Shown: piece after piece, positions 3,882-55,743 of the stretch
Layout: each line of letters opens with the position of its first letter
Position numbering within the stretch: the first letter of the stretch is position 1
DNA from: Escherichia coli
Lineage (GTDB): Bacteria; Pseudomonadota; Gammaproteobacteria; Enterobacterales; Enterobacteriaceae
Assembly: GCF_050920415.1 (NCBI RefSeq)
Contig: NZ_CP169309.1
DNA length: 64,000 nt
Reading direction: 5' to 3' (one strand)
Translations under genes and position numbers: made by a program
The notes under the pieces: generated by a model
Databases searched by the model: none
What the model was told of the DNA's origin: nothing
Seen by the model: the letters and a program-made list of their open reading frames with translations, nothing else

Positions 3882-4478
3882 TTAATCCGATCTTCGCTGC
3901 AACAATTTCGCCATATTAATCGACTCGACCAGCTGTGTCCGGTTGATCCGGGGTGAGTTGAGATCCATCACTTTTTGCCATAATCCGATGGCCTGCGCGT
4001 AGTTCGCCTGCATAAACGCATCGGAAGCCAGCAGCATCAGAGCGGTGATTTCGTTAGAGTCCAGCGCGAGGGCTTTGTCGATCATTGCGCGAGTCTGGGC
4101 GGTCATATGCTGGCTGGCCTGGTAATACAGCACCGTCGCCAGCGCCGCATACAGTTCAGCGTTCTCACCACGTAGTTGCAACGCCTGACGGTACGCCAGC
4201 AGCGAATTGCTGTAATCGTTTTGCCACAGATAATACTCGCCCAGTAACGCCCATTGTTCGCTGTTTTGTGGATTAGCGCGGATTTTATCCTGCAATGCCT
4301 GAAGCTGCGCTTCCGGGGTTTGCTGGCTGGCAAACTGATGTAGCGGATCGCGCTGACGCTGATACTCCGCACGTACCGCCTGCCATTTTGGGCTTAACAG
4401 ATAACTGCCGACACAGAGAAATACCATAAATATCGTGAGTGTTGTCAGCATTTTCACCGGTATTTGAGGCTGTTTCAT
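3882..4478 (-). CDS. nrfG: Formate-dependent nitrite reductase complex TPR protein NrfG
   Basis: 198-aa product starting [14 protein letters not shown]; start overlaps nrfF stop by 4 nt. Confidence 0.9.
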
Positions 4479-4858
4479 CGCTTCGCCCTTACCCGCCAGA
4501 GGATCAGTATCATCAGCAGTAACAACACCACTGGCAGCGCCCACAACATCAGCGTCTGACCGGTTAACGGTGGGTTATAGCGAACAAAATCTCCGTAGCG
4601 TTCGGTCATCCAGCCAATGATTTCGACTTCACTTTTCCCCTCCGCCACCATGCTGTAAACCTGATGGCGCATACTGACTGCCACCGGCGCATTGGATTCC
4701 AGTAAGTTCTGATTCTGGCATTGCGGACAACGTAACTGGCTGGCAATAGTTAACGCCTGTTCCTGTTGTTGCGGATTGGCGAATTGCCAGGTGTCTACAA
4801 CCTGAGCGCGCGCAAAACAGGTAAATAACAGCAGTAGCGTGAGAAGCCCTTTATTCAT
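4475..4858 (-). CDS. nrfF: Cytochrome c-type biogenesis protein NrfF (CcmH-like)
   Basis: 127-aa ORF with signal peptide and CPQC thiol motif. Confidence 0.9.
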
Positions 4859-6533
4859 CGCGCTTCCTCCCCCGCCATCCGCTTAACAATGCGCCCGCAA
4901 TCATCAACAATCCTCCCCCCCAGATCCAGCGCACACCGCGTTGTACATACAAACGAAAAGCGTAACGATCCGGTCCGGTTTTCTCGCCCATGACCGCATA
5001 CCAGTCATGGATGCCGTTCCAGCGAATTGCCGGTTCCATCATTTGCTGACGACGTGCTTCGTAAAAACGCCGCTCCGGCGTCAGTTCACCAATGCGTTGC
5101 TGATGGTCAAACAGCGCCACTATCGCTTTTTCGCTGGTGTAATTACCTTTGGCTTGCAGATCGAGGCGCTCAAAACGGAAGGTATATCCTGCCAGAGTCA
5201 CCTGCTGACCCGGCTGTAAATTCAGGCTGATCTCCTGACGGCTGACGCTTGAAACCACGATCCCCGCGGCAAATAACAGCACACCCGCATGCGCCAGCAG
5301 CGCCGGAAGCTGCACGCGTTTGCCAGAGACAAACGTCGCCAGCACAATCACCACCAGCATCAACAGACCAAACGGTAACGTCGCGCGGTTAAAATACGGC
5401 GCGCCAACGGAGAGGCGTCCCCAGCCCAGCAGGCCGTAAATCATCGGATAAAGCGTTCCCACCAGCACGATCAGTAGCACTGCGCAAAACAGCAACAGCG
5501 TAGCGAGGATTAACATTTCCCGCGATAACCCCGAAAAATGCACCGCCGGGCCACCGTCCCGCGCTCGCCAGCCATACAGAGCCAGAGACACAAGGCTAAT
5601 CAACGCAAACAGGCTGAACAACGGCACGGCGCGGACGTTATCCAGTGCGAACGCATGAACCGAAACCAGAATGCCAGAGCGGACAATTAAGGTGCCCAGC
5701 AGCGACAGCATCAGAGTAACTATCGCCAGTAACAGCGACCAGTGGCGGAAAATCCCCCGCTGGCGTGTCAGGGACAAACTGTGCAGCAGCGCAGTGGCAG
5801 AAAGCCAGGGTAATAAAGAGGCGTTTTCCACCGGGTCCCAGAACCACCAGCCGCCCCAGCCCAGTTCGCAATAGGCCCACCAGGAACCAAGGATGATCCC
5901 CGCAGTTAATGCCCCCCAGCCTGGTAGTGCCCAACGCCAGCAAATTCGGGCGCTGGCAGCATCAAACTCACCGCGCAGTAGACTCGCCAGCGCCACACTC
6001 GCCGCCACCATCAAACCACCATAGCCGAGATAAAGCAGCGGCGGATGAAAGATAAGACCGGGATGTTGCAGCATCGGATTGAGATCGCGACCTTCGATTG
6101 CTGGCGGAAATATCCGCGCAAACGGATCGGACCACAGCACCACAAACAGTAGCAGTGCGGTGAGCATGAGAGATAAAACGGCTAGCGTCAGCGGAAATAG
6201 CGGATCGGTTTGCTGCCGATAATGCCAGGCAAACAGCGCACTCCACGCGGAAAGGAGTAGCACCCAAAGTAGCAACGAACCTTCATGCCCTCCCCACACT
6301 GCCGCCAGTTTGAGTTCCCACGACAGCAGGCTGTAGCTATGTTGGGCGACATAAATGACCGAGAAATCGCTGATGAGAAAACAATACGTCAGTACGCCAA
6401 AGGCGAGCAGCAGGAGCGCGAACTGCGCCAGAGTGCCGATGCAAGTGAGTCGCATCATGGCAGGCCAGCGCAACCGCACTCCCGCAAAGGTTGTCAACGG
6501 GGTCAACACGTTGACCCCAAGACTTAACAACAA
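4851..6533 (-). CDS. nrfE: Heme lyase NrfE (CcmF-like) for the CWSCK heme of NrfA
   Basis: 560-aa polytopic membrane ORF; the K-12 product is slightly shorter by my recollection, so the true start may be an internal codon near 6509. Confidence 0.88.
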   Translation of the reverse strand: MLLSLGVNVLTPLTTFAGVRLRWPAMMRLTCIGTLAQFALLLLAFGVLTYCFLISDFSVIYVAQHSYSLLSWELKLAAVWGGHEGSLLLWVLLLSAWSALFAWHYRQQTDPLFPLTLAVLSLMLTALLLFVVLWSDPFARIFPPAIEGRDLNPMLQHPGLIFHPPLLYLGYGGLMVAASVALASLLRGEFDAASARICWRWALPGWGALTAGIILGSWWAYCELGWGGWWFWDPVENASLLPWLSATALLHSLSLTRQRGIFRHWSLLLAIVTLMLSLLGTLIVRSGILVSVHAFALDNVRAVPLFSLFALISLVSLALYGWRARDGGPAVHFSGLSREMLILATLLLFCAVLLIVLVGTLYPMIYGLLGWGRLSVGAPYFNRATLPFGLLMLVVIVLATFVSGKRVQLPALLAHAGVLLFAAGIVVSSVSRQEISLNLQPGQQVTLAGYTFRFERLDLQAKGNYTSEKAIVALFDHQQRIGELTPERRFYEARRQQMMEPAIRWNGIHDWYAVMGEKTGPDRYAFRLYVQRGVRWIWGGGLLMIAGALLSGWRGRKRDE

Positions 6534-6588
6534 CGCCAGAAAACCGACTTCAGGAAGGAATACGTCCAGAAACCACCTCTTTTCTGGC

Positions 6589-7545
6589 TTACGCCACCGT
6601 CAACTGCCCAGCGTAGAGAATGAAAAAGCGCAGCATCAACACCCCGACCAGGCTGGCCCCACACGCCGCCAGCACGGCAGGAATCCCGGAACTGCGATTG
6701 ACCCACGGTTTGAGCAACATTGGCACAATCAGCCCCAGCCCGGCGACACCAAGCCAGAACCACCACGTCCAGAAACCGCCGCCCAATGCCGCCACCAGCG
6801 CACGCACTTTACCGTCATCGCCCAGGGCCAGACCGACGAAAAACGCCACCAGCAGGAAGATTTCGCCCCATACCACAGGGATTTCCATACGGTGAACAAA
6901 GTGCGCTTCCGTGGAATGCGGGTTACTGCGTTGGCGTATCGCCATAGCGATCAACGCCACCGCCGCACCGGACGAAATGCCGGAGAAGAGGAATAGCACC
7001 GGCAGGATCGGGTTATTGAGGAACGGATATGATTTCAGCGCCGACAGCAGAAAGCCGGTATAAGCCCCCAGCAGCACCGCCAGCACCAGCATCAATGTTT
7101 CCAGTCCGCGATGAACGGGCGTCAGCAGACTCAGAACCTTTTGTACGATCCCCAGCTTCGGCAACCAGCGTTGTTGCAGGGCAAGCAAATCATGTTCAAA
7201 GATTTTCGCCAGCCACAGCACCAGCACCACCATGTAGAGCTGAAACAGCATCACCCCCATCGACATCACCGAGGTAAAACTGTAGTGGAACATCAGCTTC
7301 CAGAAGGTCCACGGTCTTGTCAGGTGGAAGACGAGGATCAACAGACCGAGGATCACCGCGCCAGGCCCGACAATCAGCGTGGTGCGCAGCAACGTACTGT
7401 CTGCACCGCCCGCCTGCGGGTAGAAGCGACGTAACAGCACGGCCAGCGTCACCAGACCGGCAGAAATACCAATCAAAAACAGGTAGATGGCAATCGGCCA
7501 GTCCCACACCAGCGATTCAAAATGAAATGCGGAAGTCTGCGTCAT
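6589..7545 (-). CDS. nrfD: Nitrite reductase membrane subunit NrfD
   Basis: 318-aa polytopic membrane ORF; overlaps nrfC stop. Confidence 0.92.
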   Translation of the reverse strand: MTQTSAFHFESLVWDWPIAIYLFLIGISAGLVTLAVLLRRFYPQAGGADSTLLRTTLIVGPGAVILGLLILVFHLTRPWTFWKLMFHYSFTSVMSMGVMLFQLYMVVLVLWLAKIFEHDLLALQQRWLPKLGIVQKVLSLLTPVHRGLETLMLVLAVLLGAYTGFLLSALKSYPFLNNPILPVLFLFSGISSGAAVALIAMAIRQRSNPHSTEAHFVHRMEIPVVWGEIFLLVAFFVGLALGDDGKVRALVAALGGGFWTWWFWLGVAGLGLIVPMLLKPWVNRSSGIPAVLAACGASLVGVLMLRFFILYAGQLTVA

Positions 7546-8213
7546 TGGCTCACCTCCCCGTATTTAAACGGTACGCGGTACAGCTTCGGTTTGGTTCCCA
7601 GCGCCAGCTTGTAGCGGTAAGTGGGCTTCTGGCGTAGCAGTTGTGAAATCTCACTGTTGGGATCGTCCAGATTGCCAAACGTCAGCGCCTTCGTCGGGCA
7701 AGCCTCAACGCACGCGGGGAGCTTACCGGCCTGCAAATTGGTCTTACGGCAGAAATCGCATTTGTCCGCCGTCTTCGTGACCGGATGGATAAAGCGCACA
7801 CGGTACGGACAGGCGGCGATGCAGTACTGACAACCGACGCAGAGATCCGGGTTAACATCGACAATCCCGCTGGCAGCATCGCGAAAAGACGCACCCGTTG
7901 GGCAGACGTCAACGCACGGTGCATGGTCGCAGTGCTGGCAAGACTTACGAAAGAAGCGATATTTCACATCAGGAAATTCGCCCTGCGGCTCGCTACGAAT
8001 AATTGTCAGGCGCGAGACGCCTTCCGGCACCTTGTTCACTTCCCGACAAGCATCCATACAGGCAGTACAGCCGATGCATAACGACTCGTCATGCACCATG
8101 CCGTAACGCACCCCATTGATATTCAACGTTTTCGCCACCACGCGTCCTGCGGTGCCGCTGACGGCTGCCAGCACGCCGACGCCGGTGAGAAACTGGCGAC
8201 GAGACCAGGTCAT
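7542..8213 (-). CDS. nrfC: Nitrite reductase 4Fe-4S ferredoxin subunit NrfC
   Basis: 223-aa ORF with Tat-type N-terminus (RRQFLTG) and multiple CxxCxxCxxxCP cluster motifs. Confidence 0.93.
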
Positions 8214-8776
8214 GGCTGCTCCTTAAGCAACGGAACAGACGCCGGGTTAAAGTTCGGATTGGTGCGCTGATCGCTGTGGCAATCGACGCAAATCTTAATC
8301 CGTCCTTTGTCACTTAACGTCTGCATCGTATCTTGCTGTGGATGCAGGGAATGGCAGCTGGCGCACGCCACTTTGGTTACGTGGACATCGTGCGGCCAGA
8401 ACGCTTTTTGCAACTGTTCCGGCAGATGGCAGGACATACAGACGCTGTTCTGCTCTCCAACCTTGTACATCGGCTCGTTAAAGCGCATCACATCTTTCAC
8501 CCCTTCGCGGTGTTGCGGTGATGGCTGGCCGTGACAGTTGGTGCAGGTGACCGGCAGTTTGTTATTTGGGTTGATAACAGAAGCATGTTTGCCATGCATA
8601 CCTTCGGTATCTGGTTTATGACAGTCCAGACAGGCGGCATCCGGGTTACGCTGCTGGGTAACTTCGTAGCAATCACCAGATGCCTGCGCCGCAGGGGTAG
8701 CGGTAATTCCGTTCAGGCTCCACAACAGGCCCGACGCCAGCACCCCGGCAGTTAATAACGAACGTAATACGCTCAT
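8210..8776 (-). CDS. nrfB: Pentaheme cytochrome c NrfB
   Basis: 188-aa product with signal peptide and five CXXCH motifs. Confidence 0.92.
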
Positions 8777-8820
8777 ATTCACTCCATTGTGTTTTCCGCC
8801 CCTTGCGAGGCGGAACGGGG

Positions 8821-10648
<1,828 letters not shown>

Positions 10649-12607
10649 ATGAGTCAAATTCACAAACACACCATTCCTGCCAACATCGCAGACCGTTGCC
10701 TGATAAACCCTCAGCAGTACGAGGCGATGTATCAACAATCTATTAACGCACCAGATACCTTCTGGGGCGAACAGGGAAAAATTCTCGACTGGATCAAACC
10801 GTACCAGAAGGTGAAAAACACCTCCTTTGCCCCCGGTAATGTGTCCATTAAATGGTACGAGGACGGCACGCTGAATCTGGCGGCAAACTGCCTTGACCGC
10901 CATCTGCAAGAAAACGGCGATCGTACCGCCATCATCTGGGAAGGCGACGACGCCAGCCAGAGCAAACATATCAGCTATAAAGAGCTGCACCGCGACATCT
11001 GCCGCTTCGCCAATACCCTGCTCGGGCTGGGCATTAAAAAAGGTGACGTGGTGGCGATTTATATGCCGATGGTGCCGGAAGCTGCGGTCGCAATGCTGGC
11101 CTGCGCCCGCATTGGCGCGGTGCATTCGGTAATTTTCGGCGGCTTCTCGCCGGAAGCCGTTGCCGGACGCATTATCGATTCTAACTCACGACTGGTGATC
11201 ACTTCCGACGAAGGCGTGCGTGCCGGGCGTAGTATTCCGCTGAAGAAAAACGTTGATGACGCGCTGAAAAACCCGAACGTCACCAGCATTGAACATGTGG
11301 TGGTACTGAAGCGTACTGGCGGAAAAATTGACTGGCAGGAAGGGCGCGACCTCTGGTGGCACGACCTGGTTGAGCAAGCCAGCGATCAGCACCAGGCGGA
11401 AGAGATGAACGCCGAAGATCCGCTGTTTATTCTCTATACCTCCGGTTCTACCGGTAAGCCGAAAGGCGTGCTGCACACTACCGGCGGTTATCTGGTGTAC
11501 GCGGCGCTGACCTTTAAATATGTCTTTGATTATCATCCTGGCGATATCTACTGGTGCACCGCCGATGTGGGCTGGGTTACCGGACACAGTTATTTGCTGT
11601 ATGGCCCGCTGGCCTGCGGCGCGACCACGTTGATGTTTGAAGGCGTACCGAACTGGCCGACGCCTGCCCGTATGGCCCAGGTGGTGGACAAGCATCAGGT
11701 CAATATTCTCTATACCGCGCCCACGGCGATCCGCGCGCTGATGGCAGAAGGCGATAAAGCGATCGAAGGCACTGACCGTTCGTCGCTGCGCATTCTCGGT
11801 TCCGTAGGCGAGCCAATCAACCCGGAAGCGTGGGAGTGGTACTGGAAGAAGATCGGCAACGAGAAATGTCCGGTAGTCGACACCTGGTGGCAGACCGAAA
11901 CCGGCGGTTTCATGATCACACCACTGCCTGGTGCTACCGAGCTAAAAGCAGGTTCTGCAACGCGTCCGTTCTTCGGCGTGCAACCGGCGCTGGTCGATAA
12001 CGAAGGTAACCCGTTGGAAGGGGCTACCGAAGGCAGCCTGGTGATCACCGACTCCTGGCCTGGTCAGGCGCGTACATTGTTTGGCGATCACGAACGCTTT
12101 GAACAGACCTACTTCTCCACCTTCAAAAATATGTATTTCAGCGGCGACGGCGCGCGTCGTGATGAAGATGGCTATTACTGGATCACCGGGCGTGTGGACG
12201 ACGTGCTGAACGTCTCGGGTCACCGTCTGGGAACAGCGGAGATTGAGTCGGCGCTGGTGGCGCATCCGAAGATTGCCGAAGCCGCTGTCGTGGGTATTCC
12301 GCACAATATTAAAGGTCAGGCGATCTACGCCTACGTCACGCTTAATCACGGGGAGGAACCGTCACCAGAACTGTACGCAGAAGTCCGCAACTGGGTGCGT
12401 AAAGAGATTGGCCCGCTGGCAACGCCAGACGTGCTGCACTGGACCGACTCCCTGCCAAAAACCCGCTCCGGCAAAATTATGCGCCGTATTCTGCGCAAAA
12501 TTGCGGCGGGCGATACCAGCAACCTGGGCGATACCTCGACGCTTGCCGATCCTGGCGTTGTCGAGAAGCTGCTTGAAGAGAAGCAGGCTATCGCGATGCC
12601 CTCGTAA
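10649..12607 (+). CDS. acs: Acetyl-CoA synthetase
   Basis: 652-aa ORF with AMP-binding signature [11 protein letters not shown]; RBS AGGAGA upstream. Confidence 0.96.
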
Positions 12608-28658: not shown

Positions 28659-28973
28659 CTATTGAAACGTTTTATTATGAGATTTGTTGCAAAAACCATC
28701 TGACCATAACGCCAGCTGCCAGGGAATAAAAGGATTATCTACGGCTTTTGTTAAGAAAGGGAGCAGGATCACATGCGATCAGACTATGTTTGTTGTATTT
28801 AATAACTTAATGGCTCTCTATTGTGTAAAAATATTCGGATATAAAAACTTCTATTTTCTCAGTAGGAAATATCGATTATCAGAACCCATTCCTTTGTACG
28901 ATTAGCCGAAAAAATACGTATACCCACTTATTGATGATTGAGCAGGCGGCTGTTCATCCGCCTGCCAACGACA

Positions 28974-35972: not shown

Positions 35973-36977
35973 TTATTTTTTTAACACAATATCGAATAGG
36001 TCATAAATGAACTTAATAATATCTTCGTTAATGAGATCGTTGTCATTTATATCTTTGTCATTCATATCTTTGCCAATTACAATGGGTCCCGTTGAGTCTG
36101 GGTCAAATGATTGAACGAATTTAATTAACGTCTCACCTGCAGTCTGCATTTTTGTAATGTCTGTGATGTCTTTATTGTCTTCTTCAGCCTTCTTTTTCCT
36201 CTCATTCAGAATTAAATTAAAATCCAGTTCATTTTTATCTACTAATTCTTTCATATCCCTCAGGCTTTTTTTCATCACTTGACGAGATAATATTTTTATC
36301 TTACTTGTTATGTGGTTTTCACAATAATCATTAACTCTTCGTGCTGTTGCTATGATATCAGCTGATGCACTACCATATGAGAATGAAAGTAAAAGGGAAG
36401 CCAAGGGTTTTAAGCGAGCATCGTTCTTTGCTTTATATGCATTTTCCAAATTTAAAAAACCTTCGCTTACAGTTTTTAGATGTAATGACGCTACAGGTAC
36501 TTTACCATAGGGTTTATCATAAAATAGCTGAATTGCGGAGGGAAGGTCATTCTGATTTATTACATCGAAAGTACACCTGTCTATTAGAGTTGCATCGCTA
36601 TTTTCCATTGGATTACAAACAAAATCCATCGCATAATGAAAAATCGCCCGTTCTACAAATGCAGAAATATAGTCACGATCACCTAATTGCTCATTAGTGC
36701 ACTCTACAATACACTCGTCAACCCAATCTTTGAGAGCATTTATTCGTCCAATTAAGGAAACATTCTTTTCACTTGCAGTCCATAAATTATGGGTAATCCT
36801 CTGAATAAACAAATCTATTTTTGCAATAATCGCAGCGCGATTACTCATCGTTGCATAATCAACCGATTTATTATACAGATCCTTAAGTTTTCCCGAGCTT
36901 ACATCTTTATTATCGTATTGATTTGAGTTGAGGCTTTTATTAAAGTAATCTCTTGAACTTCCTATTATACTTGACAT
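35973..36977 (-). CDS. Hypothetical protein, AT-rich orphan (K-12 yjbL/yjbM position)
   Basis: 334-aa uninterrupted ORF; strongly AT-rich versus neighbours; Lys/Asp/Asn-rich; no recognisable motif. Confidence 0.6.
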
Positions 36978-53780: not shown

Positions 53781-54671
53781 ATGGCAATGGTCCAACCGAA
53801 ATCGCAAAAAGCACGTTTGTTTATTACTCATCTGCTACTGCTACTTTTTATCGCGGCGATTATGTTCCCGCTGCTGATGGTCGTCGCTATCTCTCTGCGT
53901 CAGGGGAACTTCGCGACTGGTAGCCTGATCCCGGAACAAATCTCCTGGGATCACTGGAAACTGGCGTTAGGTTTTAGCGTTGAACAGGCTGATGGGCGCA
54001 TTACGCCACCGCCGTTCCCGGTACTGCTGTGGCTGTGGAACTCAGTAAAGGTCGCCGGAATTTCCGCGATTGGCATTGTTGCGCTCTCCACCACCTGCGC
54101 CTACGCTTTCGCCCGTATGCGCTTTCCTGGCAAAGCGACACTGCTGAAAGGCATGCTGATTTTCCAGATGTTCCCGGCGGTGCTTTCACTGGTAGCGTTG
54201 TATGCGTTATTTGATCGTTTGGGTGAGTACATTCCATTCATCGGCCTGAATACTCACGGCGGCGTAATCTTCGCGTACCTGGGGGGGATTGCGCTGCATG
54301 TCTGGACCATCAAAGGCTATTTCGAAACCATCGACAGTTCGCTGGAAGAAGCGGCGGCGCTGGATGGTGCAACACCGTGGCAGGCCTTCCGCCTTGTCCT
54401 GTTGCCGCTGTCAGTGCCGATTCTGGCGGTGGTGTTCATCCTGTCGTTTATCGCTGCCATTACTGAAGTTCCGGTCGCGTCGTTGTTACTGCGTGACGTA
54501 AACAGCTACACCCTGGCCGTGGGAATGCAGCAATACCTCAACCCGCAAAACTACCTGTGGGGTGACTTTGCCGCCGCTGCCGTGATGTCTGCATTACCGA
54601 TCACCATCGTCTTCTTGCTGGCTCAACGCTGGCTGGTCAACGGACTGACGGCAGGTGGTGTGAAAGGTTAA
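53781..54671 (+). CDS. malG: Maltose ABC transporter permease MalG
   Basis: 296-aa polytopic ORF with EAA loop motif ([15 protein letters not shown]). Confidence 0.96.
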
Positions 54672-54741
54672 AGATGTTGTTCTGCCAATGTTATGCCGCT
54701 ACACCCTCAACTTACGTTATCCCAACTTGTGACTGTTATTC

Positions 54742-54766
54742 GGCGCTCTATGGAGCGCCTTTTTTT
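54742..54766 (+). terminator. Rho-independent terminator after malG
   Basis: ggcgctc/gagcgcc stem followed by T7; overlaps psiE stop codon on the other strand. Confidence 0.75.
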
Positions 54767-55175
54767 ACTCCCGCTTCAGCCGTTTCGAATTACACAGCCA
54801 TAAGGTGATCACCAGTAGCAGGATCGCTGCCGAGTAGATCAACACATCCAGTGGTGATTTATGATCGACGATGATCAAGCGCACAATGGCGGTGATCCCG
54901 ATATAGACAAAATAACGTAAGGGAAAGTGAAAACCGGACTGAAAGTACTTCACAATCAGCGCGATAAATTCGAAATAGAGAAAGTAAACCACCAGCCCTT
55001 CCACCAGCTCATATTTGCTGGCTTGTTCTGGCGCGAACAGCACATCAGCCAGATGCACCGTTTCTTTGCCGAGGAAGACAACCAAAATCAGGCCGAGACA
55101 CAACAGGCCAAGATTGAGAACGGTCTGCAAAATGGTGGAGATAAACTCCACGCGCGGACGAGAGAGTGACGTCAT
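54765..55175 (-). CDS. psiE: Phosphate-starvation-inducible membrane protein
   Basis: 136-aa product starting [17 protein letters not shown]; ATG at 55173-55175 with GGAGG RBS; the 209-aa track ORF is an upstream extension. Confidence 0.9.
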
Positions 55176-55290
55176 AGCAGTACCTCCTTCACAATGGCGA
55201 GGTTCCTGTATAACCCAAAAATGTGACGGAGATCTATATTTTTTGTGTATGTTTTGTTCAGATCGATTAAATGGGCATCTCCCAACCAAC

Positions 55291-55362
55291 GCCGGATGCG
55301 GCGTGAACGCCTTATCCGTCCTACCCGTAGGCCGGATAAGCCGCGCCTGGCGGCGCATCCGG
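55291..55362. repeat. REP/BIME cluster upstream of psiE
   Basis: gccggatgcggcgtgaacgccttatccgtcctac and gtaggccggataagccgcgcctggcggcgcatccggc. Confidence 0.85.
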
Positions 55363-55464
55363 CAAGACAAACCGCACCATAGCCTGTAATGCAAAAATCA
55401 CCCATTCAGGTGATTCCCAGCCACCAGCAATGCGCGAAAAATCGACAATGTTCCTCTGGAACAA

Positions 55465-55743
55465 ATGAAACGTAACCTGATAAAGGTGGTAAAAATGAAG
55501 CCTTATTTTGCTGCTTTGATGTTATCAGTCTCTGTCCTTCCTGCTTATGCTGGTCCGCTCGGTACTGCTGATAAAGCCGACCTACCGCAAAGCAATGTCT
55601 CCAGCCCAATGATGGCCCAGTCGCTCAGGCAACCAGACCTGCAACCAATATCGACGGACAGGAAAACAGAATGTTTTCGCCTTTACACACCAGATCGCAA
55701 ACCGGGGGTGAACTGCGTTCCTGATGGCTCGACAGGCCATTAA
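55465..55743 (+). CDS. yjbT: Small exported protein (yjbT-like)
   Basis: 92-aa ORF with internal signal-peptide-like segment MKPYFAALMLSVSVLPAYA; start uncertain (55465 or 55495); gene name from positional memory only. Confidence 0.5.
   Translation: MKRNLIKVVKMKPYFAALMLSVSVLPAYAGPLGTADKADLPQSNVSSPMMAQSLRQPDLQPISTDRKTECFRLYTPDRKPGVNCVPDGSTGH

Follow-up and report, generated by a model that had tools for sequence, protein, structure and literature searches.

In the window, which is the whole stretch of 64,000 nucleotides of E. coli DNA analyzed here, malG and psiE are convergent neighbors. The junction between them is made up of the following features.

53781–54671, plus strand: malG, maltose ABC transporter permease, 296 aa (open reading frame list and translation)
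54664–54766, plus strand: MalH-equivalent RNA, 103 nt, collinear with K-12 b4807
54672–54764, no strand assigned: malG-psiE spacer, 93 bp, between the convergent malG (plus) and psiE (minus)
54742–54759, plus strand: intrinsic terminator hairpin of malEFG/MalH (terminator scan and RNA fold)
54760–54766, plus strand: T7 tract of the terminator (read from the sequence)
54765–55175, minus strand: psiE, phosphate-starvation-inducible inner-membrane protein, 136 aa (translation)

The original prediction placed the malG stop at 54671 and the psiE stop at 54765, with 93 bp between them, and these coordinates are borne out by both the sequence and the open reading frames. malG is the final gene of malEFG. 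Its protein in the window is 100% identical to K-12 MalG, and the PsiE protein is 99% identical to K-12 PsiE; the two genes are likewise annotated as malG and psiE in an identical record (CP169399.1). The psiE start in the open reading frame list was set further out, at an upstream TTG. Upstream of psiE, at 55275–55422, there is a cluster of REP/BIME-like palindromes, which match the Rfam naRNA4 model on both strands at 25.7–32.2 bits, below the gathering score of 59.5.

The terminator scan identified the hairpin GGCGCTC-TATG-GAGCGCC, which has a 7-bp stem with six G-C pairs and a 4-nucleotide loop and is followed by T7. The same hairpin is present in the minimum-free-energy RNA fold. On the malG strand, the junction thus has what an intrinsic terminator requires, a G+C-rich hairpin with a T-run directly after it. 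The end of the T7 tract is at the same time the complement of the psiE stop codon (54765–54767), so that the terminator overlaps the psiE stop. The single hairpin terminator that had been predicted in the spacer is therefore real, but both this overlap and the identity of the RNA with MalH had been missed. Read from the psiE side, the hairpin runs into GAAUAACAGUC, without a U-run, so that termination in both directions would be no more than a possibility. The hairpin sequence is kept in Escherichia, Citrobacter and Enterobacter, and equivalent G+C hairpins are found in other genera.

MalH has been described as a 3′UTR-derived, Hfq-dependent sRNA of malG (Iosub et al., RNA Biol 2020/21, PMC8081044). 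It is 104 nt long and 5′-monophosphorylated, and its authors proposed that it is cleaved out of malEFG by RNase E (PMC8081044). The equivalent RNA in the window consists of the last 8 nucleotides of malG, including the stop codon, together with the 3′UTR and the terminator. It is identical with K-12 malH (b4807, record 4242531–4242633) at 100 of 103 nucleotides; of the three substitutions, two fall within the loop of the terminator and the third in the body. An Rfam scan of 54000–55500 yielded no MalH family model and solely sub-threshold matches to the REP-like naRNA4. Judged from its sequence, the 93-bp spacer is the known MalH 3′UTR plus terminator rather than a leftover gap, and it deserves to be annotated as such. 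MalH is presumably expressed in this strain as well.

In K-12 (NC_000913.3) the annotated order is psiE (b4030), xylE (b4031), the malH sRNA (b4807) and malG (b4032), which agrees with the gene order on which the original prediction was built, with xylE between psiE and malG. The alignment to K-12 that had been proposed as a check gives two collinear flanks and a K-12-only segment of 1,792 bp (record 4240739–4242530). The two blastn blocks are malE-malG, with 96.1% identity, and psiE-yjbH, with 95.0% identity, and they join in the window at 54762–54766. The left breakpoint coincides with the exact 3′ end of the annotated MalH sRNA. The K-12-only segment is a xylE cassette in which xylE (1,476 bp) is preceded by 276 bp of regulatory sequence and followed by a 40-bp tail that forms a terminator hairpin of its own (CAGCACGCCG...CGGCGTGCTG). 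At either end, the segment breaks off within a T-run located behind a hairpin (TTTTTTT ... TTTTT), so that 5 nucleotides (TTTTT) are ambiguous between the flanks. Accordingly, the blastn breakpoints overlap by 5 nucleotides, and TTTTT at 54762–54766 is the point in the window that corresponds to the cassette site in K-12. Because the 1,792-bp cassette is missing, the psiE stop in the window abuts the malG terminator and not the xylE terminator. A remnant of psiE was also sought in the 62 nucleotides that, in K-12, lead from the malG terminator to the conserved block of the xylE promoter; there, the alignment with K. oxytoca and Citrobacter is unconvincing.

The window and K-12 share 94.5–96.5% identity over three long aligning stretches (within 2038–51296), a divergence of about 4–5%. 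Two other local differences from K-12 were seen in the window. At 28770–28971, about 200 bp stand in place of about 975 bp in K-12 (4268310–4269284, the tyrB-aphA intergenic region, which contains yjbS), which makes this a further small indel relative to K-12, and at 35979–36479 about 500 bp do not align to K-12 4260848–4261300 (inside yjbM) and are locally divergent or replaced.

K-12 does carry xylE at this locus, and no xylE sequence was detected in the window. A tblastn search of the 64-kb window with K-12 XylE gave no significant match (best E = 0.24), and no XylE-homologous open reading frame of about 491 aa lies between malG and psiE, where the gap measures only 93 bp. CP169399.1, an independent complete genome (strain MFDS1022581, food, Korea), agrees with the window at 100% identity over 7.8 kb. 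The allele of the window is rare, being matched with at least 99% identity in 16 of 5,426 genomes over a 1.6-kb test stretch. The source is a deep-branching lineage that is labelled E. coli and lies outside all sampled mainstream strains.

Xylose can enter E. coli through either of two transporters: XylE, a proton symporter of low affinity, and XylFGH, an ABC transporter of high affinity. Growth on xylose is not expected to be abolished by the loss or absence of XylE alone. Intact xylR, xylHGF and xylAB are present in CP169399.1, and xylFGH was found in 5,419 of the 5,426 complete E. coli genomes. Xylose uptake in this lineage would thus depend on the XylFGH transporter. The absence of xylE is a finding of little weight: what is missing is an accessory low-affinity transporter, and the strain keeps XylFGH and xylAB.

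The contiguous malG-psiE junction was found in 1,786 of the 5,426 complete E. coli genomes, about a third, and xylE was found in 3,638. The two counts add up to 5,424, and absence at the locus therefore very probably equals absence from the genome; in the source strain, xylE is probably missing genome-wide rather than relocated. The spacer is 93 bp in each of four sampled E. coli strains without xylE, and the sampled strains with xylE include K-12, O103, O111:H8 and O157:H7. In a few xylE-carrying E. coli genomes the gene is interrupted by IS1 or truncated and is annotated only as “MFS transporter” (NZ_CP027701.1 and NZ_CP069093.1), and in 14 of the 3,638 genomes that match xylE no single place covers 80% of the gene. 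The original prediction had offered two readings, a strain or lineage lacking xylE at this locus or an insertion of xylE in the K-12 lineage. The first is upheld, as xylE is present in K-12 and absent from the window and from a third of complete E. coli genomes. The second stands insofar as the relatives favor xylE as the derived state, but such a gain would predate the K-12 lineage and extend beyond it, since xylE is also carried by O157:H7, O103 and O111 strains. Our results support the view that the two readings describe one situation and that both hold. Strain-to-strain difference in xylE has already been reported, with xylE listed as one of the carbohydrate transport systems by which the B1A sublineage of E. 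coli was enriched as it diversified (PMC6896753), just as MalH is already published and annotated.

We then considered the same junction across Enterobacteriaceae. A PsiE-anchored scan with one genome per species yielded 80 loci, among which there were none from E. coli, E. fergusonii, E. marmotae, E. ruysiae, Shigella or Salmonella. psiE and malG are adjacent, with no gene between them, at 64 of the 80 loci, including 41 with a spacer of at most 135 bp. xylE lies between psiE and malG at nine loci (eight from the Citrobacter freundii group and one from K. oxytoca), xylE with other cargo is found downstream of psiE at one (C. sedlakii, where the locus ends before malG), other inserts separate psiE and malG at four, and the fetched stretch contains no malG at the remaining two. 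Within Escherichia, the comparison that had been suggested shows E. albertii, E. whittamii, Escherichia sp. E1V33 and Escherichia sp. MOD1-EC7003 all to be without xylE. Their spacers, of 93 bp in E. albertii and MOD1-EC7003 and 92–94 bp in E1V33 and E. whittamii, match that of the window base for base, hairpin and T-run into the psiE stop included. C. koseri, Enterobacter, Silvania, Leclercia, Trabulsiella and Phytobacter likewise have a MalH-like tail followed by a G+C hairpin and a T-run into the psiE stop.

Where xylE does occupy the site, the right junction, with the xylE terminator abutting the psiE stop, is common to E. coli, Citrobacter and K. oxytoca, whereas their left junctions differ. 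In K. oxytoca, an insert of about 1.9 kb with xylE lies between 16-bp direct repeats, CTGAAACGCGARTAAA, which equal the psiE 3′ end (6397–6412 and 8308–8323 of the fetched locus L068). Of the two repeats, the one on the side of the malG terminator is left over from the uninterrupted junction, and the duplication marks an insertion. About 190 bp of unassigned sequence separate the left repeat from the conserved xylE promoter block at this locus. XylE orthologues in other contexts share 81–88% identity, and conserved blocks upstream of their genes recur in the xylE promoter region of E. coli. Such contexts include xylB-xylA<>xylE-xylR in Shimwellia blattae and AP025685 (3296–7800 of loci L092 and L094) and a xylE gene between psiE and pgi in Entomohabitans teleogrylli (4157–6488 of locus L093).

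A neighbor-joining tree of malF-malG was constructed from 2,558 ungapped columns with nine mainstream E. coli strains and outgroups. The nine mainstream strains form one group with 100% bootstrap support, followed in branching order by MOD1-EC7003 (99%), the window (100%), E1V33 with E. whittamii, and E. albertii. All the outgroups, the window included, lack xylE, and a single gain inside mainstream E. coli explains the pattern. The tree of the right flank, psiE-yjbH, was uninformative, with only 407 ungapped columns left. The monophyly of xylE-carrying strains within mainstream E. coli received 41% bootstrap support, and the flanks show no fixed differences. Insertion is also favored by the occurrence of xylE in other chromosomal contexts and by the unrelated sugar-related cargo that three other species have at this junction. 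From the branching order and the distribution of the junction we infer that the xylE-less state is most likely ancestral and that xylE is a later gain in part of E. coli. It is quite probable that the lineage of the window never acquired xylE and that the window retains the original, uninterrupted junction.

These data could also be explained by secondary loss, in which an ancestral xylE was cleanly removed through a deletion between T-runs or through homologous replacement by a xylE-less allele. The K-12-only segment is bracketed by T-runs of 5–7 nucleotides, and a microhomology deletion would yield the exact junction without leaving a trace. Furthermore, E. coli, the C. freundii group and K. 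oxytoca share this site for xylE, and the gene has diverged between them as deeply as the flanking core genes. The dS of xylE between E. coli and Citrobacter is 1.05–1.13, equal to that of the flanking malG (0.90–1.25), which indicates that xylE is old at the site and that no recent exchange took place between E. coli and Citrobacter. The patchy distribution of xylE is compatible with repeated loss, and the mal region recombines, in keeping with the weak resolution of local trees within E. coli. However, an ancestral xylE would have to have been lost, independently and to the exact base, at least four times. Such losses would be needed in E. albertii, E. whittamii with E1V33, the lineage of the window and MOD1-EC7003, and a third of mainstream E. 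coli would have to have lost the gene as well. The same direct junction is also present in many genera in which xylE is not at the site, the duplication in K. oxytoca speaks for insertion rather than loss in at least that lineage, and the differing left junctions of E. coli, Citrobacter and K. oxytoca fit separate entries. Secondary loss is thus improbable.

A laboratory deletion, such as a Keio-type xylE knockout, or an assembly collapse can be rejected with near certainty: beyond the bare absence of the gene, only the spacer size of 93 bp, near that of an FRT scar, would speak for engineering, whereas the gap contains no FRT-like 34-bp site with three or fewer mismatches, all 93 bp are native malG 3′UTR, the identical sequence was obtained from an independent complete genome, the same junction is common to 1,786 complete genomes and other Escherichia species, and a window that is about 4–5% diverged from K-12 throughout is not a K-12 derivative. 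Nor was any scar of an IS element or transposon found at the junction, where terminal inverted repeats, target-site duplications and transposase remnants were sought. Every base of the spacer can be aligned with the malG 3′UTR of K-12 and of other Escherichia species, which leaves no room for a scar, and the T-run is the sole repeat at the K-12 breakpoints. The claim that neither a xylE residue nor an FRT or IS scar is present was thus correct. The missing xylE between malG and psiE should not be labelled a deletion or an annotation error.

With the ancestral absence of xylE as the preferred reading, the history of the junction may be pictured as follows. Transcription of malEFG would stop at the intrinsic terminator 71–95 nucleotides beyond the malG stop, and the malG 3′UTR would serve as the precursor of the MalH sRNA, with the terminator T-run overlapping the convergent psiE stop. 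A cassette of 1.8 kb, carrying a XylR/CRP-type promoter region, xylE and its own terminator, would then have been gained by part of E. coli, K-12 included, and would have entered exactly between the T-run and the psiE stop.

The other inserts raise the more tentative idea that sugar-uptake cargo has landed repeatedly, in different Enterobacteriaceae, at the junction of the malG terminator and the psiE stop, of which the window could represent the empty form. Under this idea, cargo may get in through short-homology recombination, either in the T-run of the terminator or in the 3′ end of psiE, as suggested by the 16-bp duplication in K. oxytoca. In Citrobacter sp. 18056 the cargo (6409–11146 of locus L040) comprises a PTS EIICB, a glucosamine-6-P isomerase-like protein, an asparaginase and a LacI regulator; in strain RIT691 (6409–8188 of locus L058) it comprises a LysR regulator and a HAD hydrolase; and in C. 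sedlakii (4522–10521 of locus L038) a PTS, an oxidoreductase, a DUF7916 protein and a GntR regulator lie next to xylE. Whatever the cargo, the locus offers a clean pair of empty and filled sites for studying how cargo enters the junctions of convergent genes.

In comparison with known systems, the window has the same architecture as the junctions of xylE-less Escherichia species and E. coli strains, which differ from it in point substitutions only. malG, the MalH 3′UTR with its terminator and psiE are also collinear between the window and K-12, but the xylE cassette is found in K-12 alone. [quoted passage not shown] For the cassette, the xyl operon of the Shimwellia blattae type is a possible source context: its XylE is 81–82% identical to that of E. 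coli and its upstream regulatory blocks are common with the E. coli cassette, although it resides at a different chromosomal location.
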